Made by a program: the position numbers and the translations under genes | Shown here: positions 39,880 to 64,000 of the stretch, piece by piece | Numbering within the stretch: the first letter of the stretch is position 1 | Layout: each line of letters begins with the position of its first letter | The notes under the pieces: model-generated | Database searches by the model: none | What the model was told of the DNA's origin: nothing | The model's input: only the letters and a program-made list of their open reading frames with translations | Assembly (NCBI GenBank): GCA_965227305.1 | Contig: OZ245740.1 | Span: 1,747,371-1,811,370 of the forward strand | Length of the DNA: 64,000 nt | Origin: Limisphaerales bacterium | GTDB lineage: Bacteria; Verrucomicrobiota; Verrucomicrobiia; Limisphaerales; AAA164-E04 | Direction of reading: 5' to 3'

Positions 39880-42800
39880 GTGAAGCACCGGATATTGGCA
39901 TCAATGGATTTTGGCTGGGGACGTCATCTTCCCTTTGCGGCCCCGTTGCTCGTGAAACGATGCTTGGCATCATGGAGTTCCCTTGCGTTACTGGCCTTTC
40001 TTCTGAGTCCCAGCATCATTCTTGCACAGCCGGTTAATGTTCCTGCCTTTCTGAGTGACCTGGATGGAGACGCGCGGACTACCGTTCGCGACTTCGTGAT
40101 TCTTCAGAACCACCTCAGCGGAGACACTATTTTGCAGGAAGATCGGGTGTTCGCAGCCGATCTCAACCAAGATGGTGTGATTGATGGCCTTGATGCCGAT
40201 ATCTTACTCGATATTGTTATGGGTCGCCTACGCCCGCCGGCGACTCCGTTGGCCCGAGTGTTGACGACCTCACCGAAGGGCGGCGAGGACGGGGTCGCTT
40301 TAAGCAGGGAGACCATCGTAAGGCTGAGTTTGCCGCTGGCGGAAGATCTAGTCCTGCCGGACAATGCGATTCGTGCGGAGTTCGCCGGACAGGTGGTGCC
40401 AGGGCAACCCCATCTTAGTGCGGATCGACAAACGGTTACCCTGTTTTATCCAAGCGGTTTGCCGGCGTCGGCCCGTGTCCGGGTGACAATCGATGGCGGC
40501 TTGATGCGGGATTTACGAGGCTCACTCGTGGATGCTGATGGAGATGGCGTTCCCGGTGGAGAGCTGAGTGTCGATTTCGACACACTTACCGTCACCAGTC
40601 TTCCGGATACTTCGGTTTGCGGGCGCATTTTTGCTTCGGACCTGGCTGTTAGCGAGAACGGGAGCCGGTTCGTGAATCGTCCCTTAGCCGGTGTCACGAT
40701 TCGAGTCGATGGGACGGACCGGCTCGTGGTGACGGACGAAAATGGCAATTTCCGGTTGGAAGAGGCCCCGGCTGGAGAATTTTTCGTGCATATCGATGGC
40801 CGGACCGTCCCGGACGTCGTCCCTGCGGGCGCCTATTACCCCAATGTTGGCAAAGCTTGGGTATCTGTGCCCGGCATCGAAACCAACATCGGCGAGATTT
40901 ATCTGCCCCTGATTCCTGCGGATGCTTTGCGGGAGGCTTCGACGGAGTCGGACACGGTATTGGAATTCACGCCCGAGTTTGTGGTTCAGAATCCGAAATT
41001 CAACGGGGTCCAAGTCGTTGTGCCGCCGAATTCCTTGTTTCGTGATGATGGGACTCGCGGCGGGCGAGTGGGGATCGCACCCGTTCAGCCCGATCGGCTT
41101 CCCGGGGAGGTCGCAAGTGATCTTCCCATCCAAGATGTCGTGACCATTCAGACCGACGGGGCTACGAATTTTGATATTCCCGCACCGGTTTGCCTGCCCA
41201 ATCTGGAAGATCCGCTCACAGGCCGACGCTTGGGACCGGGAGAGCCAGCCGCGCTTTGGAGCTTTAACCATGACTTGGGACGTTTTGAGATCGTGGGATC
41301 CATGACCGTCAACGAAGACGGGAGCCTGATTTGCACGGATCCGGGGGTTGGCGTATTGGCGCCGGGCTGGCATGGCAGTAGCACGGGAACTCAGGGAGAG
41401 GGGGGAACCTTGCGTCATGTCATTCTCGATCGGAGCAAACAAGAGAAACCCGGGAAAAATGACCCTTCCGCTGATCCGGACAATAAGGTGACGATTCCCT
41501 GCCCGGACAATCCAAACCGGTATGTGAACCTTTACAAAAATCGCCGCCGTCCCCAGTCCAATCCCGAGGCTAAAGGCGGGGATCCGGTGTACCTGCACTC
41601 CGGAGAGTTTTATGAGAATATGGTGGATTTGCGGATTGCAGGGCGCGGTATGGACTTCATCTGGAGTCGCAAATATCGATCGGTAACGGGACGGCCAACC
41701 GTTCAGGGCAACAATTGGGACTATTCTTACAACATTTTCATTCGTGCCGAGGGGAATGATTTTCTCTTGTGTGACGGGAACTCCAGAGCGGATATCTACA
41801 CGTTGCAGGATTCCGGCGTTTGGACAGCTCCGGGCTTTTTCCGAACTCTCGAAGCGAATCGGGACGGGACTTATACCTTGCGATTTGAACACGGCGGGCG
41901 GTGGGTGTTTCACCCCGTGGACGGGCGCCCGGAGTCCGGCCGGATTCTCATCAGCGAGGAGCGGAACGGGAATCAATTGCGGTTCCGATATGACTCCCAA
42001 GGACGGCTCTCCGGAATCGTGGACTCGCTGGATCGTTTGATTGAAGTGTTCTACAACGGGGACGGATTCATTCGCGAGGTGCGTGACTTTGCGGGACGAT
42101 CGATTCGTTATGAGTATTTCGGTCGAAACGATCCAGACGGCAATTTTGGCGATCTTCGATCCGTGACCTTGCCGAGCGTCACGGGAACGCCCAACGGGAA
42201 CGATTTCCCAGACGGTAAAACAACGACCTTCACCTACTCAACCGGACACTCAGATGCCCGATTGAATGGGAACCTCCTCACGATCACCGACGGGAGGCGC
42301 AACGATCCGAATGACCCCGCCTTTGAGCAAGGTCCGTATCTGCGCAATGAATACGCGCCGACAATCGACCCGGAAGATGTCAACTTCGATCGGATCATTC
42401 GACAGGTTTGGGGCGATCCGGATGATATTCTCGACTATCACTACACGGCGCTATTGCCGTCGAACGCCAATCGCAGGGCGGTTAACAAGACCATCGTGAA
42501 CGATCGTCGCGGATTGGTGATGGAATACCTCTATGATGAGGCGAATCGGCTCGTTAGTTATCGAGAATTCACCGGGTTTGCCGTTCCGGATCAAGTCACA
42601 ACGGAAACCGACAATCGGCCTACTGGAAAACTCAGAGCCACCGATCCCGACTTTTTTGAAACCGTACACGAGTGGAACGCGGATCACTTACTAGTGCGAA
42701 CGATTCAGCCGAACGGTACGATCATCGAAAAAGTCTATGAAGGGGATATCAACCCCAATGCTGGCCCGCGAACCCGGTCCAATCTGGTTGCAACGCGCTT

Positions 42801-45800
42801 GCTTCCCGGGAGCCATCGACCGGCAGGGGATCAAGTGGTCATCGAGGAATTCTACGAATATGACACCGCGTTCGCGGGCTGCTGTGGTTTCAATTTCGTC
42901 ACGAAGTATACCGATGCTCGGGGGAATACTACCACGCACGACTACGATGAACGAGGTAACCGGATCCAGACTATCCATCGGGTGCCTTCCATCATTCATC
43001 GGTATGAGTATAACGAGTTTGGTCAGCTCTCCGCCGAGGTCTATCCGGACAACGACGGCGTTCGCCGGCGAGACGAGTGGGCCTACTATGAGGAAGGTCC
43101 TCAACGCGGATACCTGCGTCAGATAACTCGGGACGTGGATGGTTTCGCGCTGACCACGGTCATGGACTACGATCGCGTGGGCAATCCCGTCGCGACAACG
43201 GACGCCAAAGGCAATACCCAAGAGTTCGTGTTTAACCAACTGGATCAAATGGTGCGTGAGATCTCACGGCCGGTATCAGCGACCCTAAACGTCCGCTATG
43301 TTCAGGATTACTTTTACGATGCGAACAACAACTTGATTCGAGTGGATGCGCCCAATGTCGACCACCTTGGGGATGTCGGTAGCAATGCTTCATACACCAC
43401 GACCTATGAATACGAGATCTTGAACAATCTCATTCGAACGGCGCAGGAGATACGCGAGGGTGAGTTCCGAGTAACCGAGACTGTATACGACGCGAATCGG
43501 AATCGAATCTTGATGCGGTACGGCGAGGCGACCAACGGCAACCAAACCGACAATACGACGAGCTGGGATTTCGATGAGCGTGACTTGGTGATCCGTCTGA
43601 TTCAAGGGAAGGGAGGAGCGGATCAATCGAGCTTTGAGTTCGACTACGATCCGAACGAAAACCTGATTGTGGAGCGGTATGGAATCGAGGACGCCAAGCC
43701 TCAAATCACGTCTCGAATTTTTGATGGCTACGATCGGCCCGTGGATGTCACGGATCCGATGGGGAATCGAACCACCTACGAATACGACGCGAATCACAAT
43801 CTCGTGCGACACGTGAAGTATGGGGAACTGAATGATCAGCCGGGTAGTGCCGGCAATGTGAAACTGTTTGCGGAAAATGCGAGCTATGATCCGTTAAACC
43901 GTCTGACCCGGACGGATACCGAATTCTTTGAAGTTGGGACCGGACGGCCATTGGGCGACGGACTTTCGACCATGCAGTATCGGTATAACAACAGTAGTCT
44001 GTTGGTGGCGACGATCGACGATAATGGGAACCGCACGGTACGAGACTATGATTCGTACTACCGACCTCGCCGGGTCGTCGACGCACTTGGTAACGAGGTG
44101 ATCTATGACTATGATCAACTGTCAAATGTTGTCCGGGTGACAGAGAGAGACCTGCCCGACTCCGGAGGTGAGGCAGAGGTTTATGTGGAACGATTCGATT
44201 TCGATCATCTGAACCGTGTGATTCGGTCCATCGATTCAATTGGTAATACTTCGGAGCTCGGCTACGACTCCCGGAATAACTTGACCTACAGGAGCGATGC
44301 GAACCGCGTTACCCCGAACCAACCAGGGAATATCGTTCGCAATGAGTTTGATGGTCTCCGGCGCCATATAGCCACGGTGTATGAACTAACAGCCGATGGC
44401 CAAGGCGGCACGCCCACTGGGACCATCCGGACCGAAACCGTATTTGATCACTCAGATAGAGCCGTCGGCCGCATTGACGGAAATGGCAATCAAACGACCT
44501 ATACCTTTGATGGGCTTAATCGAATGACGGGAACGAGGTTTGCGGATGGGACGACAGAAGAGCGGACCTACAACGCGCATTCGAATCCGATCATGTGGGT
44601 CGATGCGAATGGCACTACGATCGCGACTGAGTATGACGAGCTGAATCGCAAACGACGATGCGAAATCACACCCGGTGCTGGGGTGTCGAGCGATACGACG
44701 TTTGAAGTTTTCGATTTTGACGGATTTAGCCGACTGCGTCGGTTTGCGGATGATGATTCTTTGGTTGAGAGAGAATACACGTCTATGTCAGAGATTCTTC
44801 GAGAATCGTTAAATGATGTCGTTACCTCGGCCGAATATGACGGTATGGGGAATATGCTACGGTGTGTGTACCCGTCGGGCTTTGAAACGCTCATGTCCTA
44901 TGACGGGATCAATCGCCTGACTCGTATAGATGACCGTCTTGGATTGATCGCCGATCCGAGCTACGTGGGGCGCCATCGTACGAAGCAGTGCGTGCTGGGG
45001 AACGACACCGTCACCTCTCATGAGTATGATAGGGATCGGCGTCGAATCGGTATCGAGCACCGAATGCCGGGAAGCGGGGTGTTTGACCAACGACGCTTCG
45101 CTTGGGATAGCATGGACAATAAAATCCTGCACCGTGACGAATTGTCGGGAGAGAGCCTCGAGTTTGCCTACGATTCTGTCTACCGATTGACGTCAAGTGG
45201 GCTTAGTGATACGCGGCAGGCCTATCACTATGATTCTGTTGGGAATCGCACGCGAGTTGATGGCGGGGCGTTTTCCGGAAGGTATGAACTGGATGCGGCA
45301 GTTGACGGTCCGGCAGATCGGCAAGTAAATCAGTACACCGTCACTCCGTCTGGGATTCGCCGCTACGATGCCAAGGGCAATTTACTGACAGTGGGCGATG
45401 CGCAAGAATCTTTCACTTACGACTATCGCAATCAGTTGGTTGCCTTTGCGAATCCAAGCCTGGGGCAAAAGAGCACCTATCGATACGATGCTTTAGGGCG
45501 CCGGATTGAGCGCAGTTTTGGCTCAGGACAGACGGTTAAGTACTACTATCAAGGGTCCCGAGTCCTTGAGGAGCGTGATGCGGCCGGTCGCATGAATCGT
45601 CAGTATGTGTATGGCCGTTACATTGACGAGGTGGTTAACATGCGGACGGATCAGGAGAGTTTCTACTATCATAGCGACGACACCTTCAACGTTCGTAAAA
45701 TAACGGATAGTAGTGGGGCCGTGGTTGAAAGCTATGACTATGATGATTTCGGCATGCCTGTTGTTGCCAATGGTGAGGGACTATCGGTAGGTGAATCTCA

Positions 45801-46551
45801 AATTGGGAATACCTTGTTGTTTAATGGGCGGCGATTTGATGTTGAGACGGGGTTCTATTTTTACCGATCTCGCTACCTTGACCCACGGGTCGGCCGGTTC
45901 ACAAGTCGAGACTATATCGGCACATGGGGAGATCTTGGTAACATGGGGAACGCGTTTTCCTTCGTAGCGAATAATCCGAGGACCTTGCTGGATCCAACCG
46001 GAATGGAGCCACTCGACGGCGAACGGCGGCCGTGGGATAAAGATACGCCTACGGGAACGCAGGGGCACTTTCATTGGCGGCCGTTGCATGGTGAGGTAGA
46101 GAATGGGTGGGTAGAGTGGACCACGCGGAGTGCAGGTTGGTGGTTCAGCGGCTTACCTGAGGAGGTTAAGATGAATTGGATTTACGCCCATGAACACTAC
46201 TTTGAGGGCACCTACGATGAATCGAAGCCGAGGGATGGCCACATTGGTTTTGGCGGGGAAGACCCCGAGTATCTATCGGAATACAACGAGCAGAGTCCGG
46301 GCTCATATTCGGATGATGTCATGCGGGCGGCGCGGGACATGATTGATAAGGACTTTACCGACGGGAGCTATGGGATTCCCTTCCATAATTGCCAGCTTTA
46401 TGCTGACGAATTGCGAAGGTGGTATGACTTGTTCTTGAAGGCTGTTTGTGAAGAATCGTCCACGAGCTTATCGAAGAAAGACAGGTGGTTTATCCGAGAG
46501 CTTTGGGTGAGTCGGTTTGGTGACGTCGACATCGTTAGTGAAAAGGAGTAG
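39880..46551 (+). CDS. RHS/YD-repeat polymorphic toxin with Sec signal, N-terminal dockerin-like module, Ig/carboxypeptidase-regulatory-like domains, RHS core and a divergent 181-aa C-terminal domain
   Basis: 2223-aa ORF with a GTG start. Hydrophobic leader [18 protein letters not shown]. Dockerin-like paired Ca loops ([20 protein letters not shown] / [20 protein letters not shown]). VCGRIF...[10 protein letters not shown]...TDENGNFRL (CarboxypepD_reg-like). Dozens of YD repeats (..YDANGN.., ..Y.YD..). RHS-associated core [33 protein letters not shown]...[31 protein letters not shown], ending in LLDPTGM. Confidence 0.9.
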
Positions 46552-50463: not shown

Positions 50464-52302
50464 GTGGCGTATGGACGGGATTCCGACTCAATGAACCGCG
50501 CACGGGAAAGTAATCTTCTCGCCGCAGCCTGCCATCTGGGAGCGGTTGTGTTAACCCTATTGGGTGTTGGTGTCCCGTCGGTAAGGGCTGCCACGATCTT
50601 GGACGTGGGGGAAGCGGTTGCGCCCAAGGGGGCGACGGTCGTGGTGGATATGGTGCTGACTTCAGACCAAAATGTCGCAGCCCTGCAGTTTGACTTGTTG
50701 TACGACAATCGTCGACTGACTACCGAGTCTACCCGTTTGAGTCAGGCCCAAACACGGCACACGGTTGATTCTCGGGATGTGGCTCCGGGGCGCCTTCGGG
50801 TCGCGGTTTATCCGTCAGCGAATGCAGTTCTGGCGGATGGTCCTTTGGTTTCGTTGCCCTTCGTTATCGCACCGAATGTTGGTTCTGGGGAACTCCCGTT
50901 GACCCTGGATGTCGCTCAAGTTGTTTTCTCGACAGTCGCGGGGCAATCGATCTCGGCAGATGAGCTTTTGAATGGGGCGATAACCGTTGATGAAACTGTT
51001 GGTGTTTTTCGAATTGCCGGTCGGGTTCATTATTTTGGCGGTGGGAACGAACCGTTGCCGGAGATCCGCCTGCGTCTACTCGGAGCGGACACCATTGGGA
51101 CCGATACGGATGCCGAAGGCCGATTCGAGCTATTGGCCAACGGAGGCAATGACTATCGGTTGGAGGCGGTGGCGCCCGGGATCCGTCTCGCGCCCGAATC
51201 CGGCGTAGACGTGGGAGATCTCGTGGCATTGCGTAAACATCTACTCGGTTTCGGCGATATCGATTCCCCCTTTGGCGCATTGGCGGGGGATGTCGATGGG
51301 GATCGAGCCCTCACCGAATTGGACGTGGAGCGAGTTCGGGGAATGCTTCTAGGCGAAGCGACAACGCTGCAGGGTTCGGTGGGCGTGGCCGGTGAGTCCC
51401 TCTTCTTCTTGCCGTCGGACCTAAGTTTTGTAGACCGTCGGGATCCGTGGGGTGCTCTTGGGGCAGCCAACGCGAACGCGGTCCGGCGAATCTCCGGACT
51501 GGGGAACGCACGATTCGGTGAAGATTTCGCCGGAATCAAATTGGGAGATGTCAACGGAGACTGGCGGTCCGTGGGCACAGAGTTGCCTCTGGAAACCCCA
51601 AGCTCTGGCTTTGGATCCGTTGAACTGCGTCTGAGATCGGGCTACGGGGTGCCGGGCGGAGAGATCCGTCTGCCGCTGTTTGCGGAAAGTTCGGATCCCT
51701 TGCTTGGTCTCCAATTTGATCTTGGCTGGGACCCATCCGTGTTGCAGTTCGATCGGTTTGAAAATGTGCGTCTACCTGGGTTTGACCCCGCGATTCACAC
51801 TGCCGAGGGGGCGGAACGAGACCAAGTGCGTGTGGTGTGGGCGGACCCAATTGCTTTAGGTCTTCAAATCGGGAGTGCGGAGCCGGTGTTGGAACTGGTG
51901 TTCCAGGCGGTAGCGGATGCGGAACTCGGGGCGGCCTCGCGCGTTGATTTCTTGGGTGGATCAACTCAAGTGTTGGGTTACGGTTTTGACGGCCGACAGG
52001 ATATGCAGGCCCAGGACGCGATTGTGGTTTTGGCGGCTGCGCCTGACTTCGACAATATCGTGTCGGTTGGTGATGCGGTTCTAACTCGCTTCGTCCCGGG
52101 TGAGACACTGGAGCTCTGGGCATTCGCGGAAGATGGCCGCACCTACATTCTTGAGACGACCCTGTCCTTTAGTGATCCCAATTGGGAAGAAATCGCTCAA
52201 GCCGTAGCTGCCGATGGTCTCGTCGAGTTTTCCGTAGCGGCAGATGCCGCTTTCCAGCGTTACTTTCGACTGCTCGAATTAGCGGCGGAAAACAATCCAT
52301 GA
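50464..52302 (+). CDS. Secreted protein with two cohesin-like domains, a carboxypeptidase-regulatory-like domain and a dockerin-like segment (scaffoldin-like)
   Basis: 612-aa ORF (GTG at 50464, or ATG at 50491) with a signal peptide. Cohesin-like blocks: GATVVVDMVLTSDQNVAALQFDLLYDNRRL... and GGEIRLPLFAESSDPLLGLQFDLGWDPSVLQF... Dockerin-like segment: DLVALRKHLLG...GDVDGDRALTELDVERVRGMLLG. Confidence 0.7.
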   Translation: MAYGRDSDSMNRARESNLLAAACHLGAVVLTLLGVGVPSVRAATILDVGEAVAPKGATVVVDMVLTSDQNVAALQFDLLYDNRRLTTESTRLSQAQTRHTVDSRDVAPGRLRVAVYPSANAVLADGPLVSLPFVIAPNVGSGELPLTLDVAQVVFSTVAGQSISADELLNGAITVDETVGVFRIAGRVHYFGGGNEPLPEIRLRLLGADTIGTDTDAEGRFELLANGGNDYRLEAVAPGIRLAPESGVDVGDLVALRKHLLGFGDIDSPFGALAGDVDGDRALTELDVERVRGMLLGEATTLQGSVGVAGESLFFLPSDLSFVDRRDPWGALGAANANAVRRISGLGNARFGEDFAGIKLGDVNGDWRSVGTELPLETPSSGFGSVELRLRSGYGVPGGEIRLPLFAESSDPLLGLQFDLGWDPSVLQFDRFENVRLPGFDPAIHTAEGAERDQVRVVWADPIALGLQIGSAEPVLELVFQAVADAELGAASRVDFLGGSTQVLGYGFDGRQDMQAQDAIVVLAAAPDFDNIVSVGDAVLTRFVPGETLELWAFAEDGRTYILETTLSFSDPNWEEIAQAVAADGLVEFSVAADAAFQRYFRLLELAAENNP

Positions 52303-56358: not shown

Positions 56359-56482
56359 CCAGTGGTTTCATACACAGAGGGGTCACCACAAGGGGTGAGA
56401 TTCCGCAGATGCTGTTTGTGGGCACTCGCCAATAGTGGGGATTACGGGAAGGGGGCGTTCTTGGCATTCTTTTGGCTAAGGG

Positions 56483-59400
56483 ATGAGAGAGAACGGCAGA
56501 TCTTCTTTGTTGCTATCCGCTTGGCGACCCTGGTTGCTCGGATGGCTTTTACTTCATGTGTGTCGGGTCGATTGTGAGGCTCAGGGATTCCACATTAGCT
56601 TCGTCGACAACGATCGAATCGTGCTGAACCATACCTTGGGGAACGATGCCAGACTGAAAATCGTGAGGGTGTCGGGATCCGAGGGCGAACGGGATTTCGC
56701 GGGACTGCCAAGCCCCATAACGGATCTCGAAGTGACTCAAGGGGAAACCTATGAGTATCAACTCTTCGTCTTTGACCCAATCTTGGAGGAGTTTGTGGGG
56801 TCGGGAGGTCCGCAGTCGGCAACGGTGGGTGAGGTGCGAGGGCTTCTGCCTCACGATTTGACCTGGGCTGCTGATCGCGTTCTGTTTGATGACGTGGTCG
56901 TGCCGGAAACGGCTACGTTGACAATTCGAGGCGCGGCGCCAGATCAGCGCGTGTCGATTCAGAATGCTCCCAATACGCGGCTGGTTCAGTTGAACTTCAT
57001 GGGTAAGCTGGAAGCCGAGAATGTGACCTTTCGGAGTCTGGATCGGGTGAATTCGGCTGTCAGTCTTTTGGGACGGTCTGGAGTGCCCTTCACTCCCGAG
57101 GCGATCAAATCGACACTCGTATTTCGGAACGTTAACTTGGAAGACGTCGATTTGGACGCAGCCAACAACCCAACTCTGGAGAACGTCAATGACGGAGGTT
57201 CCACGGCGAGTCGAATGCGGTTGTTCAATCTAGAGAATTTCCTCTTCAAAAACTCGGGAGAGCTTTCCCATACCACCGTTGAGTTTCATCTCCTGTCGGG
57301 AAGTTTGGAGATCAAAGATTCACGGTTCTCGAATGTGGTGGTCATGCCAGCGGAGTTCAATAGCCAGACCGAAGATCCCAAGATCGACGGACGCGTCATC
57401 TTTAGTGGGAATACACTGACGTCCACGCGGAATCCCGTGAGTGACTTTTTGAATTTCGGGACCACGGGGATTATTGAAATTCTGAATAACCGCAAAGACC
57501 CAAACGGCGTTCCCTACGAACTGGAACTGGAGTTTTTTGCTTCGCCTCCGGGTTTGACGGATTTGTTTCGAGAGATTTCGGGCAATACCGGTGTTTCGAA
57601 TCTGTTTTTGAATCAAGTCAGCAACACGGAGGTTCGGATGAATACGATCAACACGCCCCAGAACCAAGGAACGGCTGGAATTACCGTGAACGGGAACCAC
57701 AACCGAGTTGTAAACAATACGGTTGCCAAAGATTTCGACCTGTTCGCTTCTGAGTTTTCTGCCGGTATTCACGTTAACGGGAATCCGGCAACCGGGAACC
57801 GGATTGAAGGGAACACCGTGACAGAATACGGGACGGGGATTCTCTTGGCCCGGGCGGTGGATAACGTCATTCGGGACAACGATCTCGACGGTAATAATAA
57901 CGGTATCTTCCTCAATGGCACGGGCGTCAATATCCCCGAGGGGAACCAGATCTTCAACAACCGGATCGTCAATACCCTCTTCAGTAGCGTGCGATTGGGC
58001 GAGGATTGCTTCACGGGATGTCCGAACTCCTGGAATGCCGAACGTATGGCGGGTAGTAATATTCTGGGGGGACCGTTTATCGGAGGGAATTTCTACGGCG
58101 ATTTCTTTGGAGCAGTGGATACGGATTCCCCGCCGGATGGCCTGAGCAATGTGTCCCGAATGCACAATGCCGTGAACGTGGATAATCTGCCCTTGATGCC
58201 ACCGCAGGCGGATCTCCAAGTCAATGTGTTGAATCCGCCCACTCAGGTTGCGCCGGGAGGTTTGCTCTCGTTCTCATTTGAGGTGGTGAATCTGGGACCG
58301 AGTGTTTTGGGGGATCCAATCTCGCTGGATATCTTCGGGTTGAATCTGGCGACGGATCAGTTTGCAACCCCCGTGGACCCCAGTGCGGGTGCCGACTTCT
58401 GTAGTCTCAATCTGTCGGCGATCAACTGCAACCTCGCCAGCGGCCTGGGTGTGGGGGAGATGCGGACGGGTACGGTGTCTTTTCGGATCAGTCCGGATGT
58501 GTTGACGAATCTCGGTCCGGATGGATTGCAGTTTGGTTTCTTCCTCTCCACTCAGGCCCCGGTGAGCGACCCCGACAACTCAGATAATTCTCGGACGGTG
58601 CGAGTGGATGTGTTGGAGGATATCGATGGTGACGGTTTATCGACATCGATCGAGGAGATGGCGGCGGCGGCCTTGGGGGATAGCGACGTCAATTCGAACG
58701 GCATCGCGGATCATGAGGATCCTTCCGCGGCTCTATTCCTTGACCGGGATGGCAACGCCATTGCGATGCACTTCGGGAGTAACCCGGGGAGGTTTAACAA
58801 TGTAGTGCCCAAAAGTACCAGCACCTTTCTGCCTCCGATACAGTTCGATCCGATCGCAGACGGTGCCTTGGGATTTGCGGATGTTCAGATCGATTTGGGA
58901 CCGGGGGCTCCGATGGCAGGTACGACTTTGGAATACCGATTTTCTGAGACCCTCATGCCGAATGTGGCAGATGCCGTCGTTGTGGAATCCCTCCCGGCTG
59001 GCACACCCGTCGTGATTCCAGTGCGCAGATCCCTTCCGGGCCTCGTTGAACTTGAAGTCCAGGATGGTGGCCCGGGGGACAATAGTGGGCCGGGAGATGG
59101 CATCATTGATCTTTCGAACCTAGCGGTTTATCGCGAGCGGAAGGCCAATCTCGTGCTCAGTGGTCCCGCCGTCGTTGCCAACTCCGTTCCCGGACCCGAT
59201 GGAACGCCGCATATTGGTTCTTTTGATCACAAAAACGCCTTTGAGTTGGAATTGGTCTTGGAGAACACAGGAGAGTTACCGGCCGAAAATGTCGAAGTGA
59301 CTGTTGCGATTGAGGATACCGTGAACGGTCTGGTGAAGCCGTTGGTTCCTTCCCAAGTTGACGGGGCGGTGTCCGGAAGCGGCGTGGACGGACTGACCTG

Positions 59401-62400
59401 GACGGTTCCTAAGGTCACCAAAGGAACCCCGGCTAAGATCAAGATTCCTATAGCGGCTAGTTTTCCCTGTGCGTGCCAAGGGATCAAGATCTCTGCGAAT
59501 GCAACCACCACAACAATGGAGACGCGTATCGACGACAACGCCTACCAAGGGCGACTCAGTCAGGGTTCCGTGCCGCTGCACGATCAACTCCAAGTCGCGC
59601 TGGCTGAATCTCACCAGTCTTTGGAAGATGCGATTTCCGAAAGCATTTTCCGGACAAAAAGGTCCCTTAGCCTAGCGATGTATCAGGTCGATAGGATTCC
59701 CATGGATCCGGAGCCGTTGCCAATGTTGCGGGACGTCATGAGTTCTATCTCCATTGATCCCGACAACAATGATCTGGCAATCGTGAAGGTCACTGCGGTG
59801 CCCGAGGCCAATCAGTTCGGGGAGCGCGACCTCGATCTTCTATTGAGAAGTCCTTTACCGAACGGATCCTTTCATATGCAGGTGGTCAAAATCCCCTTAA
59901 AGATTGTCCCGCTTAATGACTCGCCCGAGTTTGACGCCCCAGCGACAGCCGGCACGGACGAGGACAAGAAAACGACCGTCCCATTTTCGATTTCGGATGT
60001 GGACACGAGTGAGTTCGAAGTCAAGATTACGGTCAATTCCAAGGATCCCGACAAAGTGAAGAGCGGAGGACTTAGCATCACGGGAGACGGACCGCAGCGA
60101 ACTCTGTCGGTAACGCCCGAGCCTAATGCCCACGGGCCGGTGGAACTCGAACTAGAGGCGGATGACGGCGCCGGCGGGCTGACGCTTCACGACATCTTGC
60201 TGACCATTCGCCCGGTCAATGATCCGCCTACCATCGTCGGTCCGGCCGAGGCGACGAGCCGGGAAGACCAACCCAACGTCTTGGAATTCACGGTGGATGA
60301 CATCGAAGACGTTGAGCCGCCAGAGGTGCAGGTCTCGGTAAGTTCGGGGGAGGGCATCGTGATCAATCAGGAGGGCATCACGAAACAAGTGGAAGGGAAC
60401 AATGTTTCATTGGGTTACACCCCCAATCCGAACGCGAGCGGTGAAGCCACATTGCTGCTTCAGGCGATTGACCGAAACATCACGGTGACGAAGCGAGAGC
60501 TGAAGATCACGATTCAAGAGGTCAATGATCCGCCGATGGCGGTAGACGATAACGTTGTGGTGCCGGCCGGCTCCCGAGACAATCTGCTGGACGTCTTGGA
60601 GAATGACTCGATCGAACCGGACAAGGACGAGACGCTCTCGATTCGTGACATCGTGGTGCCTCCGAGTAACGGACAAGCGAAGCTCACACCGGAAGGTCAA
60701 CTGGTCTACACTCCGAACCAAGACTTCGCCGGTCAGGATGACTTGAAATACACGCTGGAGGATTCGAGAGGCCTGACGGCGACTGGAAACGTCCGCGTGC
60801 TGGTGAGCAGTTCGGTTGAAGTGCCCGACGATGCTTTGGAAGCACGGCTTCGATTTGTCCTCAACATTCCTCCCGGCGTGAAGTTCGACGTGGCTGATTT
60901 TCTGCGCCTGGAGTTGGACCTCGACCTGAGCAACGGAGACATCGAGAGCTTGGAAGGCCTCCAGCACGCCACGAACCTGAAGGGCCTCAACGTGAGTGGG
61001 AATAACGTGAGGGATTTGACTCCGTTGGAATTCCTCAGACAGCTGGAGACGCTGGATGTCTCGGATAACTTGGCCAATATCAACGAGGGGACGGAGAACG
61101 ATCGGATACTGAACACGATTGAGTCTAGAGGTGCCAGCGTCGTGCGTACCAAGCAGCGGCAGGACATTATCTTCGAACCCATTCCTGAAATCCCGGTCTG
61201 CATCGGGCAGACCATGCTGAACGTGACCGGCGGGGCGTCGGGCAATCCCGTTGAGCTTTCTTCAGCCGCAGGGGTCGCTTTTTTGCCGGGAGATTTCGTC
61301 GTGTTTCCGAACGGTGAAGCCGACTATCAGATCACCGCGACACAGGAAGGAAACGATAAGTATTTTGCGGCGCAGCCCGTCTTGCGGTTTGCGTTCTTGA
61401 GGAAGGAACGCCAGGTCGTTCGGTTTGATCCACTGCCGCAAGGGCGCGTGTTTGGTGATAACAAGGGCTCGATCTTGTTGGCAGCGCAGGGGGCCACGGA
61501 TCAGATTACCTTCGAGAGCAGCAATCCCAGCGTAGCGAGCGTCGTTGCAGGGCGTCTCTTCATCAATGGCGCTGGTACAGCCACCATTACTGCCAGGGAT
61601 CCGGGCGACGATTGCATCCGTCCTGGCGAAGCGTCACAGGGGATTCGGGTCGCCCGAGCGCCGCAAGAATTGAGTCTTGAACCCTTCCTCGATCAGATCT
61701 TTGCCTTTGGGCGCCAGATATCGATTCGGGGCCAAGGTCAGGATTCCGGAATACCGATTCAGTTTCTGGTGAATCCAACGGACGCGTTGACGCTCGAGCA
61801 GACTGAGTTTGTAGGGCGAGAGTTCAACATTCTTGCCACCCTGAACGGGGTGTTCCCGGACGTGCAGGTGACGGTGTCGCAGGCTCCGAACAACAACTTC
61901 CTTGAGGCGCCGAGTGTCACGAGGAATTTCTCGATTCGAAAAGGGGTGCAACAGTTCAGCTTTCCGGCGATTGGAACCAAACATGTCGGGGACTTACCGT
62001 TTGATGCGTTCGTCACGAGTGATGACCGGAACGAGCCAGTGATACTGACATCGCTTACCCCGGAAATCGTTTCTGTAGAGGGTCACAGGGTCACCATCCT
62101 GAAAGGGGGCACGGCCCGAATACAGGCCACGCAGGCGGGGAATGCTCTATTCAATCCGGCCGAACCGATCGTTCAGGAATTTCTGGTGAACTGTCTTCCG
62201 GTTGTGTCTGGACTTACCACACTCACCGGCGAAGAGGACGGAACCATTGGTCCGATCTCGGTAACGATTGAAGACAAGGAAACTCCCTTCGATCAACTGA
62301 CGCTCGAAACGGTGATCTTCGGAACTGAGCTTGACGGCACGGAAGCTCGACTCGAGCGTGGCAGCGGCGCGGGAGAGATGTTGCTAACGATCGTGCCGCC

Positions 62401-64000
62401 GAAAGATTTATCTGGAAGCGGGAGTGTCACCATTACGGCCACCGACGAGCATGGCGGCGTAGGGCTGGGTGCGGCCCCGTTGACGATCGCTTCCGTGAAC
62501 GATCCTCCCACAATCGTTCACGATCCCAACTTCGCCACGGAGTCTGTTTTCCGGTTCAGCGACAAGGAAACGCCGAACTCAAAGTTAGAACTTGAGTTCG
62601 TTTTGAGTGGTCCCGATAACGTGGATCCGTTTGGGTTTGATGTTCTAGACGTAGGCTTTCTCGGTCCGGAATTGGCCTTGGTTGACATCATTCCAATGGA
62701 ATCGATTCTGGGGGACAGAACACTGACCGGGACCGTTCGTGACGAGGAAGGGGCCGAGGCATCGGTGAGTGTTGATGTTCGAATCGAAGGAACCCGTGTG
62801 GTCGACGGTTATGTGGCCGGGAGTTCGGTGTTTGCCGATCTCAATGGCAACGGCATTTTAGACCCCGAAGAACCGACCGGAACGACCGACGCCCTGGGCG
62901 GGGTCATTCTAGTTTTGCCACCCGATTTTTCCGGTGCGATTCTTGCAAGCGGTGGAACTGATATTGCAACCGGCGTCCCGTTGACCGGTATCCTGAAGGC
63001 ACCGGCGGGATCGGGAGTGGTTAGTGCCATCAGTACGGTCGTGACCGAACTTGTGAACCGGGGTCGCTCGCTTACCGAGGCGCAAGCGGTGGTAAAGACC
63101 GCCTTTAAGCTGCCGGATTCACTGGATCTTCTGAATACGGATCCGATTGCCGGAACGCAAGTGGGCGATTCCGGTGCTGGAGCCCTGTTGGGCGCCGTGG
63201 TGCAGGTTCAGAATCTGATTGTGCAAGCCAACTCGATTACGACGGGAGCCATGGGCTCGGGTGCGAGTGGTGGGGTAAGCGATCAGGTGATCTCAGCTGT
63301 CGCGGGACAGGTCGAGCAGAATCGGAGCGTGAACCTGACCGATCCTAATGTCGTGGAGTCGATTCTCCAAGAGACCGTAACGAATACCGGTGTGCCCGTT
63401 TCGGATCAGATTGTTGGTGGGGCTGCAGGGGTAATTGCGGCGGCCAACGAAGTCGTCTCGGAAGCCGTCGAGACCATGACCGGTCCTGGCTTTGATACGC
63501 TGGTGGAAGTAGCTCAGGTTCAGAAGGTCGCTTTCACTGGAACCGCGGAGGGCTTGATGGAGGCAAGTGCGGGGCGCGAGGCGATTGAAACCGTGGTCTC
63601 AAGTTTTACCGGTTCGAACCTACAGAGCCAAGTGGTTGGAGTGACGGTGAATTCGCCACTCGGGAATGAGCGACCGACGATCTCCGGGATTTCGGATCAG
63701 CGGATCGACGAAGACGGGATTCTTTCGGGGATTGAAGTTGTGGTTGGTGACTCTGATTCGGCTGTTGAGACTCTGGCAGTTAGGGTCGTGACTTCGAATA
63801 CGCATCTGATTCCTGAACAGAATGTGATCGTAACCGGGGCGGGAACCACTCGCCAAATTGAGCTAAGACCACTTCCGGATTCGTTTGGAAGTAGTGATAT
63901 ATCGGTTTCCGTGAGTGATGGAAGGCTTTCAGCGACTACGGAATTTCGGCTTGAGGTCTTGCCGGTTAACGACAAGCCAAGCATTGGCGCGATTGAGGAC
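56483..64000 (+). CDS. Giant secreted adhesin-like protein, 5' part only (more than 2506 codons, open to the window edge): beta-helix (PbH1) repeats, CARDB-like domain, cadherin/VCBS-like tandem domains, LRR, Ig-like domains
   Basis: This ORF is not in the supplied track because it has no stop in the window. I translated the frame manually: a stop TAA lies at 56477-56479 and the ATG at 56483 (MRENGRSSLLLSAWRPWLLGWLLLHV...). I spot-checked the frame as open at ~57.2, 59.1, 59.6, 60.0, 61.1, 62.0, 62.6, 62.9, 63.6 and 63.9 kb, and it ends in phase at 64000 (..PVNDKPSIGAIED). Motifs: GNRIEGNTVTEYGTGILLARAVDNVIRDNDLDGNNNGIFL (PbH1), recurring VNDPPT(I/M)V, LRR LEGLQHATNLKGLNVSGNNVRDLTPLEFLRQLETLDVSDN, and VDGYVAGSSVFADLNGNGILDPEEPTGTTD. 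Confidence 0.8.
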   Translation, partial: MRENGRSSLLLSAWRPWLLGWLLLHVCRVDCEAQGFHISFVDNDRIVLNHTLGNDARLKIVRVSGSEGERDFAGLPSPITDLEVTQGETYEYQLFVFDPILEEFVGSGGPQSATVGEVRGLLPHDLTWAADRVLFDDVVVPETATLTIRGAAPDQRVSIQNAPNTRLVQLNFMGKLEAENVTFRSLDRVNSAVSLLGRSGVPFTPEAIKSTLVFRNVNLEDVDLDAANNPTLENVNDGGSTASRMRLFNLENFLFKNSGELSHTTVEFHLLSGSLEIKDSRFSNVVVMPAEFNSQTEDPKIDGRVIFSGNTLTSTRNPVSDFLNFGTTGIIEILNNRKDPNGVPYELELEFFASPPGLTDLFREISGNTGVSNLFLNQVSNTEVRMNTINTPQNQGTAGITVNGNHNRVVNNTVAKDFDLFASEFSAGIHVNGNPATGNRIEGNTVTEYGTGILLARAVDNVIRDNDLDGNNNGIFLNGTGVNIPEGNQIFNNRIVNTLFSSVRLGEDCFTGCPNSWNAERMAGSNILGGPFIGGNFYGDFFGAVDTDSPPDGLSNVSRMHNAVNVDNLPLMPPQADLQVNVLNPPTQVAPGGLLSFSFEVVNLGPSVLGDPISLDIFGLNLATDQFATPVDPSAGADFCSLNLSAINCNLASGLGVGEMRTGTVSFRISPDVLTNLGPDGLQFGFFLSTQAPVSDPDNSDNSRTVRVDVLEDIDGDGLSTSIEEMAAAALGDSDVNSNGIADHEDPSAALFLDRDGNAIAMHFGSNPGRFNNVVPKSTSTFLPPIQFDPIADGALGFADVQIDLGPGAPMAGTTLEYRFSETLMPNVADAVVVESLPAGTPVVIPVRRSLPGLVELEVQDGGPGDNSGPGDGIIDLSNLAVYRERKANLVLSGPAVVANSVPGPDGTPHIGSFDHKNAFELELVLENTGELPAENVEVTVAIEDTVNGLVKPLVPSQVDGAVSGSGVDGLTWTVPKVTKGTPAKIKIPIAASFPCACQGIKISANATTTTMETRIDDNAYQGRLSQGSVPLHDQLQVALAESHQSLEDAISESIFRTKRSLSLAMYQVDRIPMDPEPLPMLRDVMSSISIDPDNNDLAIVKVTAVPEANQFGERDLDLLLRSPLPNGSFHMQVVKIPLKIVPLNDSPEFDAPATAGTDEDKKTTVPFSISDVDTSEFEVKITVNSKDPDKVKSGGLSITGDGPQRTLSVTPEPNAHGPVELELEADDGAGGLTLHDILLTIRPVNDPPTIVGPAEATSREDQPNVLEFTVDDIEDVEPPEVQVSVSSGEGIVINQEGITKQVEGNNVSLGYTPNPNASGEATLLLQAIDRNITVTKRELKITIQEVNDPPMAVDDNVVVPAGSRDNLLDVLENDSIEPDKDETLSIRDIVVPPSNGQAKLTPEGQLVYTPNQDFAGQDDLKYTLEDSRGLTATGNVRVLVSSSVEVPDDALEARLRFVLNIPPGVKFDVADFLRLELDLDLSNGDIESLEGLQHATNLKGLNVSGNNVRDLTPLEFLRQLETLDVSDNLANINEGTENDRILNTIESRGASVVRTKQRQDIIFEPIPEIPVCIGQTMLNVTGGASGNPVELSSAAGVAFLPGDFVVFPNGEADYQITATQEGNDKYFAAQPVLRFAFLRKERQVVRFDPLPQGRVFGDNKGSILLAAQGATDQITFESSNPSVASVVAGRLFINGAGTATITARDPGDDCIRPGEASQGIRVARAPQELSLEPFLDQIFAFGRQISIRGQGQDSGIPIQFLVNPTDALTLEQTEFVGREFNILATLNGVFPDVQVTVSQAPNNNFLEAPSVTRNFSIRKGVQQFSFPAIGTKHVGDLPFDAFVTSDDRNEPVILTSLTPEIVSVEGHRVTILKGGTARIQATQAGNALFNPAEPIVQEFLVNCLPVVSGLTTLTGEEDGTIGPISVTIEDKETPFDQLTLETVIFGTELDGTEARLERGSGAGEMLLTIVPPKDLSGSGSVTITATDEHGGVGLGAAPLTIASVNDPPTIVHDPNFATESVFRFSDKETPNSKLELEFVLSGPDNVDPFGFDVLDVGFLGPELALVDIIPMESILGDRTLTGTVRDEEGAEASVSVDVRIEGTRVVDGYVAGSSVFADLNGNGILDPEEPTGTTDALGGVILVLPPDFSGAILASGGTDIATGVPLTGILKAPAGSGVVSAISTVVTELVNRGRSLTEAQAVVKTAFKLPDSLDLLNTDPIAGTQVGDSGAGALLGAVVQVQNLIVQANSITTGAMGSGASGGVSDQVISAVAGQVEQNRSVNLTDPNVVESILQETVTNTGVPVSDQIVGGAAGVIAAANEVVSEAVETMTGPGFDTLVEVAQVQKVAFTGTAEGLMEASAGREAIETVVSSFTGSNLQSQVVGVTVNSPLGNERPTISGISDQRIDEDGILSGIEVVVGDSDSAVETLAVRVVTSNTHLIPEQNVIVTGAGTTRQIELRPLPDSFGSSDISVSVSDGRLSATTEFRLEVLPVNDKPSIGAIED

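Follow-up and report, generated by a model that had tools for sequence, protein, structure and literature searches.

A 2,656-residue mosaic protein from a Limisphaerales genome, probably fibrillar adhesin-like, with a widespread C-terminal Fn3-like module

We analysed a 64,000-nucleotide stretch of DNA from a Limisphaerales bacterium (hereafter the window; G000:C1:1747371-1811370 of an assembly of 10.57 Mb in 2 contigs), at whose 3' end a long reading frame is cut by the window edge. The region from position 56483 to window-equivalent 64453 is one intact, real and complete gene, which encodes a mosaic product of 2,656 residues that we call the giant protein. Its named domain families comprise a NosD-type parallel beta-helix, tandem-95 modules, internalin-type leucine-rich repeats (LRR) and immunoglobulin (Ig)-like modules, and it ends in an Fn3-like module that recurs on dozens of other proteins of the genome. 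We consider it rather probable that the giant protein is a Sec-exported, Ca-binding, fibrillar adhesin-like surface protein with a carbohydrate-binding beta-helix head.

A complete open reading frame that crosses the window edge

A preliminary description of the window, drawn up from the letters alone, had reported a 7.5-kb open reading frame (ORF) that was missing from the ORF list, truncated by the window edge and overlapped only by antisense shadow ORFs. All of this is borne out. An in-frame TAA at 56477-56479 is followed by GGG and then by the ATG at 56483, from which the + frame runs for 2506 codons without a stop to the window end at 64000. It is absent from the ORF list because it runs off the window edge, and the only listed ORFs that overlap it are antisense and 100-299 residues long. 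Reading the frame on in the genome (L002:7177-7971) places the stop at window-equivalent 64453, 453 bases past the edge, and gives the complete product (P0002, locus L002), of which 150 C-terminal residues lie outside the window. The possibility of an overlooked in-frame stop, raised at the outset, can be put aside, as none occurs in 2656 codons. By an arithmetic estimate for 56.6% GC, at which ~3.7% of random codons are stops, the chance of 2656 open codons is ~1e-43.

Mis-assembly is frequent in giant repeat-rich genes, as the preliminary description had cautioned, and we therefore weighed whether the frame could be a product of faulty assembly, or open but without function. This is scarcely credible. 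The gene has no tandem repeats and no direct DNA repeats of >=20 nt beyond chance level, and a BLASTP search of the protein against itself returned no match at E<=1e-3. Moreover, the frame is unbroken and free of N in a 10.5-Mb contig, its segments match independent protein families and homologues that all lie in the same frame, and its GC content (0.53-0.57) differs little from the genome mean (0.566). Since repeats are absent and the assembly consists of only two contigs, a collapsed or mis-assembled repeat is unlikely, and since the protein does not match itself, its modules appear to be old and diverged. Horizontal transfer was considered on grounds of composition and dropped, the same GC values giving no signal. 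Scans for sigma-70 promoters and intrinsic terminators near the start and stop, which are uninformative for this phylum, found none.

A beta-helix head and a stalk of tandem modules

The features of the gene and its surroundings are listed in Table 1. Scanning the protein with Pfam and NCBIfam models recovers the beta-helix, tandem-95, LRR and Ig-like modules, in line with the earlier view of a giant multi-domain protein of the secreted type. The beta-helix, previously placed at ~57.5-58.0 kb, is found at ~57.6-58.1 kb: its core (residues 369-541; 57587-58105) matches PF05048 (NosD) with E=4.2e-15 and 56.2 bits against a cut-off of 23.6, and the parallel beta-helix repeat model TIGR03804 with 27.4 bits against 19.45. 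The NosD copper-maturation subfamily TIGR04247, in contrast, reaches only 17.3 bits against a cut-off of 300; what is common is the fold class, and the protein is not a NosD orthologue.

Table 1. Segments of the giant protein, the second giant protein and neighbouring genes. Positions are those of the window unless a genome or locus coordinate is given.
Feature	Residues	Position	Strand	Remark
Signal-peptide-like leader (basic start, hydrophobic core, ...CEA/QG)	1-33	56483-56581	+	by eye
Small beta-rich N-terminal domain	34-124	56582-56854	+	no family match
Right-handed parallel beta-helix head	~125-560	56855-58162	+	outer limits by eye
Beta-sandwich-like stretch	570-706	58190-58600	+	CARDB resemblance by eye only
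Acidic Ca-binding-type loops	707-745	58601-58717	+	DIDGDG at residue 713 and DVNSNGIAD at residue 735 (pattern search)
Unassigned domain with DGGPGD...GDGIID motif	746-904	58718-59194	+	
DUF11/CARDB-like beta-sandwich	905-1035	59195-59587	+	sub-threshold
Linker or domain	1036-1142	59588-59908	+	no family match
Three tandem-95 (Big_9/Cadherin_5/Cadherin_4) modules	1143-1447	59909-60823	+	each starting (V)NDxP
Internalin-type LRR	1450-1550	60830-61132	+	supported core 1478-1534
Four ~88-residue Ig-like (Big_2-like) modules	1553-1906	61139-62200	+	type found in YDG/MBG-domain giant proteins
Two more diverged tandem-95 modules	1905-2092	62195-62758	+	internal alignment
Conserved ~300-residue mid-module	2085-2395	62735-63667	+	without annotation
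Two tandem-95 modules	2393-2592	63659-64000, then past window	+	residues 2393-2506 inside window
Fn3-like C-terminal module (tag)	2590-2656	window-equivalent 64250-64453 (G000:C1:1811620-1811823)	+	ends ...QFFRVIE + stop
Second giant protein, P0351	2,662 residues	G000:C1:4325116-4333146 (locus L117)	-	
Dockerin-tagged RHS gene		39880-46551	+	
Cohesin gene		50464-52302	+	
Sulfatase (with SGSH_C) fused to 3-keto-disaccharide hydrolase domain	717 residues	L003:513-2669	-	

The remainder of the N-terminal half is poorly assigned. Residues 34-124 match none of the Pfam and NCBIfam models at E<=10 or E<=1 and have no paralogue in the genome. The CARDB-like domain that had been proposed at 58.2-58.6 kb was not recovered, since residues 570-706 match no Pfam family even at E<=10 and have no significant PDB sequence match; a sub-threshold DUF11/CARDB similarity sits elsewhere, in residues 905-1035 (PF01345 DUF11, E=3.6e-4, 21.3 bits against 24.6; PF07705 CARDB, E=0.1). 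The D-x-D-G-D Ca-binding stretch described at ~58.6-58.7 kb stands as far as its motifs are concerned, but residues 707-745 match no TSP3 or EF-hand profile. For residues 746-904 there is a weak hint of choice-of-anchor U (E=0.041, 14.7 bits against a cut-off of 32). PDB sequence searches with residues 30-760, 120-570 and 565-1040 gave nothing significant, and a single-sequence AlphaFold2 model of residues 30-720 had a pLDDT of 32 and was unusable.

Repeated ~100-residue VNDPP modules had been noted at three places, and at all three we find tandem-95 modules, seven in total, which bear the signature (V)NDxP...D.D...P.P..G...D..G. As a whole the protein scores 126.9 bits with NF012211 (tandem-95) against a cut-off of 90, in five stretches. 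The first block matches PF17963 (1.2e-29) and PF17892 (5e-16) and is confirmed by internal alignment; the second matches Big_9 as an isolated piece (E=0.011); the third matches Big_9 in two stretches (1e-8) and also aligns internally. The LRR reported at ~60.9-61.1 kb is likewise present and is of the internalin type, with PDB sequence matches to an LRR protein and to InlA, InlC and InlB (E 3.7e-9 to ~1e-7), and the isolated piece scores 27.1 bits with LRR_4 against a cut-off of 27. The class 1 internalin families (NF033189 and relatives) remain at 17-23 bits against cut-offs of 1050-1600, so that only the type of LRR is common. Finally, internal alignment supports the Ig-like modules at 61.15-62.2 kb, as does BLASTP, which aligns them repeatedly with P0018 and P0019 (E 1e-20 to 4e-19), and PF26918 appears among the entries precomputed for the query. 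The protein is acidic in composition (362 D+E versus 170 K+R) and has no internal transmembrane helix, its sole Kyte-Doolittle window >1.6 lying at residue 2137.

A module without annotation in the middle of the protein

Between the last two tandem-95 blocks lies a conserved module whose start (VDGYVAG..F.D.NGNG.LD..E...GGTD) is SdrD-B-like and resembles an SdrD-B-type Ca site (D-x-N-x-N-G-x-x-D). The ~230 residues that follow are, judged by eye, probably helical. Mid-regions of five other giant proteins align with the module at 34-39% identity over 94-96% of its length; one of these proteins, P0064 of Microcystis aeruginosa, annotated as SdrD-B-like/cadherin, carries it mid-protein as well, with 38-39% identity over 94%, whereas the remaining architecture of such cyanobacterial giants is unrelated to that of the verrucomicrobial one. 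Shorter matches occur in proteins annotated as VCBS or bearing HemolysinCabind (P0068, P0069), and a diverged copy is present in the paralogue P0351. The preliminary description had called the VDGYVAG segment typical of very large RTX/VCBS-type adhesins, and it does recur in giant proteins annotated with cadherin, SdrD-B, 'VCBS' or HemolysinCabind. No Pfam, NCBIfam or PDB sequence match was obtained for the module (PDB search with residues 2085-2400), and we found no published or curated description of it. A PDB profile search with the module alignment caught cadherin domains outside the module and was uninformative on the module itself.

A lineage-specific mosaic and a second giant protein

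In a homologue search of 5.8 billion clustered proteins (lengths 1,460-4,648 residues), the best matches span only 10-17% of the giant protein, by way of the tandem-95 or Ig-like blocks, and no search returned a full-length orthologue. None of the BLASTP database matches covers residues 1-1150. Moreover, a search of 10 genomes of the same genus and 11 of the same family for the first 1,160 residues found no match, and among 19 other families of the order there is one weak partial match, to the beta-helix; across 400 genomes of the phylum, residues 30-720 were matched twice, both times weakly and in part. By sequence comparison the gene is thus a lineage-specific mosaic.

The same genome encodes a second giant protein, P0351, which consists in order of a cohesin head (PF00963), at least 11 tandem-95 modules, the diverged mid-module, Calx-beta, more tandem-95 modules and the C-terminal tag described below. 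Two giants with one chassis and different heads would fit a stalk that is tagged at its C-terminus and can take different N-terminal heads. Such a design also fits a C-terminus that forms the cell-proximal or sorting end and an N-terminal head that forms the working end. As a side observation, the cohesin head of P0351 could dock dockerin-tagged proteins, for example the RHS toxin encoded in the window at 39880-46551.

The C-terminal Fn3-like module is common in the order

The giant protein ends in an Fn3-like module of ~55 residues, hereafter the tag, with the pattern G-T-L...G-P-[WYF]...S-P...F-[YF]-[RI]-[VLA] followed by 1-3 residues and the stop. We searched all ORFs of the genome by phmmer with the last 72 residues and iterated to convergence. 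The tag is carried by 47 ORFs of 88 to 2,677 residues and lies <=5 residues from the ORF end in 39 of them; in 37 of these 39 terminal copies an aromatic-aromatic-[R/I]-hydrophobic motif is followed by 1-3 residues and then the stop. Signal-peptide-like leaders, scored by the same crude rule throughout, are found in 42 of 46 carriers compared to 47% of background ORFs, and other tag-bearing proteins of the genome have leaders similar to that of the giant protein.

To describe the family beyond this genome, a 21-copy profile was run exhaustively against 1.84 billion representatives. It retrieved 8,346 clusters at E<=1e-3, of which 1,518 remain at E<=1e-10. Of 147 top representatives whose match is close to full length, 132 have the tag <=5 residues from the C-terminus. 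Named carriers all derive from Verrucomicrobia-type metagenome-assembled genomes (MAGs) and bear lectin or glycosidase domains; the domains recorded in them are Laminin_G_3, PA14, GLEYA, Ig, CBM9, F5/8-C, GH16, GH18 and Calx-beta. All 21 same-family genomes contain the tag, with 11-73 matches apiece, as do 15 of the 19 other families of the order, with 1-25 matches; in the rest of the phylum only 11 of 200 genomes have it.

Comparing 81 tag members with Pfam-A and NCBIfam revealed no curated model beyond scattered noise, and literature searches found no description of the tag. AlphaFold2, run with an 81-row alignment, predicts with confidence a small all-beta domain (pLDDT 88.5), for which fold searches return generic Fn3/Ig structures only (Foldseek E>=0.045; VIA Z ~5, where Z<8 calls for caution). 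The C-terminal domain (CTD) of a type IX secretion system (T9SS) cargo, 5hfs_A, appears at rank 11 with E=0.25 and TM ~0.43, which is indistinguishable from the generic Fn3 matches. The corresponding Pfam family Por_Secre_tail (PF18962) is absent from the families matched by the 81 members at E<=0.1 and was not found in the genome, in a search without a positive control; neither was SprA_N (PF14349), which was not found in 14 control genomes either and so also has no positive control.

The tail of the giant protein has no hydrophobic C-terminal window and hence no PEP-CTERM-type helix. The genome encodes three exosortases (PF09721; G000:C1 5532299-5533015, 7292071-7292817 and 445960-446700), which means that a PEP-CTERM system exists in it. 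Tag copies come in two flavours, one ending ...F[YF]R[VL] plus 1-3 residues and the other ...QFYIAQ, FFIAE or FYIAR, the latter often after a Pro-rich linker (PPVPPLPP...); examples are found in L004-L023. The copy closest to that of the giant protein (E=2e-14) makes up almost all of an 88-residue ORF on the - strand (G000:C1:5233927-5234190), which could be a free-standing tag or what remains of a gene. The genome also contains ~147 ORFs with a prepilin-type N-terminal motif ([GAS]F[TS]L.E..). A link between pilins and the tag was considered and rejected: a prepilin-like ORF lies <=3 kb from 10 of 47 tagged ORFs versus 10% of ORFs >=400 residues, a roughly twofold enrichment that is too weak to use, and the giant gene has no prepilin-like ORF within 6 kb.

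Host genome and gene neighbourhood

RpoB, in its best segment, is 76-85% identical to Limisphaerales and Verrucomicrobiae MAGs, and as all close matches are from Verrucomicrobiota, we assign the host genome to this phylum and not to Planctomycetes. With 10.57 Mb it exceeds in size each of the 10 genomes of the same genus that were searched (3.3-8.5 Mb).

From window position 39880 up to the giant gene every gene is on the + strand, in the order RHS with dockerin, TSP3/Big protein, unassigned protein, cohesin protein, small ORF, NHL and TPR. The preliminary description had counted the giant gene, together with the TPR and NHL genes, as part of a surface-protein island; this is fair as a description, given the same-strand adjacency and the secreted-protein neighbours, while a functional link is only presumed. 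On the 3' side, genes for the sulfatase/3-keto-disaccharide hydrolase, an aldo-keto reductase, an aminotransferase, Lnt and an alkaline phosphatase are convergent with the giant gene.

Discussion

CASH proteins are a family of carbohydrate-binding proteins and sugar hydrolases, and the beta-helix of the giant protein is of the NosD/CASH type. Following a predicted N-terminal signal peptide, the protein would be exported through the Sec pathway as a long, acidic fibre stiffened by Ca2+. Its N-terminal head would be the parallel beta-helix, continued by the poorly assigned beta-sandwiches and the acidic Ca loops, and its stalk would be formed by the seven tandem-95 and four Ig-like modules, broken by the internalin-type LRR and the mid-module. 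The beta-helix head and the LRR would be held away from the cell by the stalk and could there bind polysaccharide, other cells or particles, and the Fn3-like module at the C-terminus would serve to retain the protein at the cell envelope or to sort it there. We infer this picture, namely export, orientation, Ca binding, ligand, the role of the C-terminal module and the adhesin function itself, from the sequence.

Fibrillar adhesins have been defined as a class, and for almost half of them no anchor is known (Monzon, Lafita and Bateman, BMC Genomics 2021, PMC8286594). The giant protein resembles the fibrillar adhesin-like proteins of that study in being a very long multidomain protein with tandem Ig/cadherin-like stalk domains (Big_9, Cadherin_5), here 2656 residues with seven plus four modules. 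It also resembles them in that its adhesive-domain candidates, the NosD-type beta-helix and the internalin-type LRR, lie towards the N-terminus, while a distinct module, the Fn3-like one, occupies the usual place of the anchor and is the only anchor candidate. Like nearly half of the published set it has no known anchor, but its phylum, Verrucomicrobiota, is outside the four main ones analysed there. It passes the cut-off for tandem-95 proteins (NF012211; Priestia, Actinoplanes, Verrucomicrobiaceae; P0007, P0012, P0014), yet that family accounts for only 7 of its ~20 domains and does not include the head, LRR, Ig block, mid-module or tail. In kind, the giant protein is thus ordinary: one more mosaic giant in a well-populated class.

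Several points weigh against a fibrillar adhesin-like surface protein. Save for the generic LRR and beta-helix, the sequence contains no recognised adhesive domain above a family-specific threshold, and none of the known anchors (LPXTG, PEP-CTERM-type transmembrane helix, T9SS CTD, autotransporter barrel) was found in it. In this it differs from the fibrillar adhesin-like class, and attachment to the surface and binding are predictions. The signal peptide was judged by eye, and the head is poorly characterised, as the N-terminal ~1,150 residues are nearly orphan and their model has the low pLDDT given above. The tag is not strictly terminal either: it is internal or duplicated in 8 of the 47 ORFs and present in two or more copies in 34 of the 147 top representatives. 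Moreover, its fold is generic, so that it may be merely a common terminal domain.

The main rival, which we regard as unlikely, is that the giant protein is a released polysaccharide-active enzyme, in which the beta-helix is catalytic (a lyase, hydrolase or epimerase) and the other modules are spacers or carbohydrate-binding accessories. The NosD/CASH beta-helix superfamily, in which the PF05048 match places the head, includes sugar hydrolases and lyases; other tag carriers include GH16, GH18, CBM9 and PA14 proteins, and the gene convergent with and downstream of the giant gene encodes the sulfatase/3-keto-disaccharide hydrolase. However, no catalytic beta-helix family (pectate lyase, GH28) was matched in Pfam or NCBIfam, residues 120-570 have no PDB sequence match beyond noise, and a stalk of ~2,100 residues far exceeds the usual appendages of enzymes. 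We find it considerably less probable that the giant protein is a structural part, scaffold or cargo, of the neighbouring RHS-dockerin/cohesin display system. Its gene is on the same strand and only 4-17 kb from the dockerin-tagged RHS gene and the cohesin gene, and the other giant of the genome, built on the same chassis, bears a cohesin head. Yet the giant protein itself matches neither cohesin nor dockerin, a 520-base gap and three unrelated genes separate its gene from the four-gene unit, and since the N-terminal half was not found in the 40 relatives searched, beyond the one weak and partial match to the beta-helix, a conserved linkage cannot be demonstrated.

Very improbable, in our estimate, is the type I-secreted RTX/VCBS-type adhesin suggested by the wording of the preliminary description. 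The giant protein shares with RTX biofilm adhesins (LapA of Pseudomonas, MpIBP of Marinomonas) its size, Ig/cadherin-like repeats of the kind that form their Ca-dependent Ig-like extenders, Ca-binding motifs and the presence of putative ligand-binding inserts, and its VDGYVAG module is also found in HemolysinCabind-bearing proteins. Unlike them, it has neither RTX repeats nor a type I secretion C-terminus: its 2656 residues contain no GGxGxD nonapeptide and no HemolysinCabind (PF00353) match, and its C-terminal module is common to ordinary signal-peptide proteins. At the N-terminus it has a leader resembling a Sec signal peptide and not a retention module. The RTX label was therefore dropped, and a Sec-exported fibrillar adhesin-like protein is the reading that we prefer.

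A further possibility, put forward tentatively, concerns the tag, which could be an undescribed, order-wide signal at the C-terminus for sorting or surface anchoring, analogous to the T9SS CTD in Bacteroidota. If so, dozens of Sec-exported lectins, glycosidases and giants per genome would be marked for a dedicated machinery of outer-membrane export or attachment, and the giant protein of the window would be among its largest cargoes. T9SS CTDs (Por_Secre_tail PF18962/TIGR04183; RgpB CTD, PDB 5hfs, 5ag8) are likewise small terminal beta-sandwiches of the Ig/Fn3-like kind that are found on many unrelated signal-peptide proteins, dozens per genome, in a restricted lineage. In contrast to them, the tag is shorter (~55 versus 70-100 residues), has no sequence match to PF18962 and belongs to a phylum outside Bacteroidota/FCB.

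Two elements of the giant protein reach beyond this gene. The ~300-residue mid-module of verrucomicrobial and cyanobacterial giants, which currently has no annotation, could be curated as a family. The tag defines a large, unmodelled family that is almost always terminal and sits on signal-peptide proteins. How Verrucomicrobiota move large proteins to the cell surface and hold them there is, to our knowledge, poorly understood, and a defined tag would provide a testable handle on the surface retention of such proteins.

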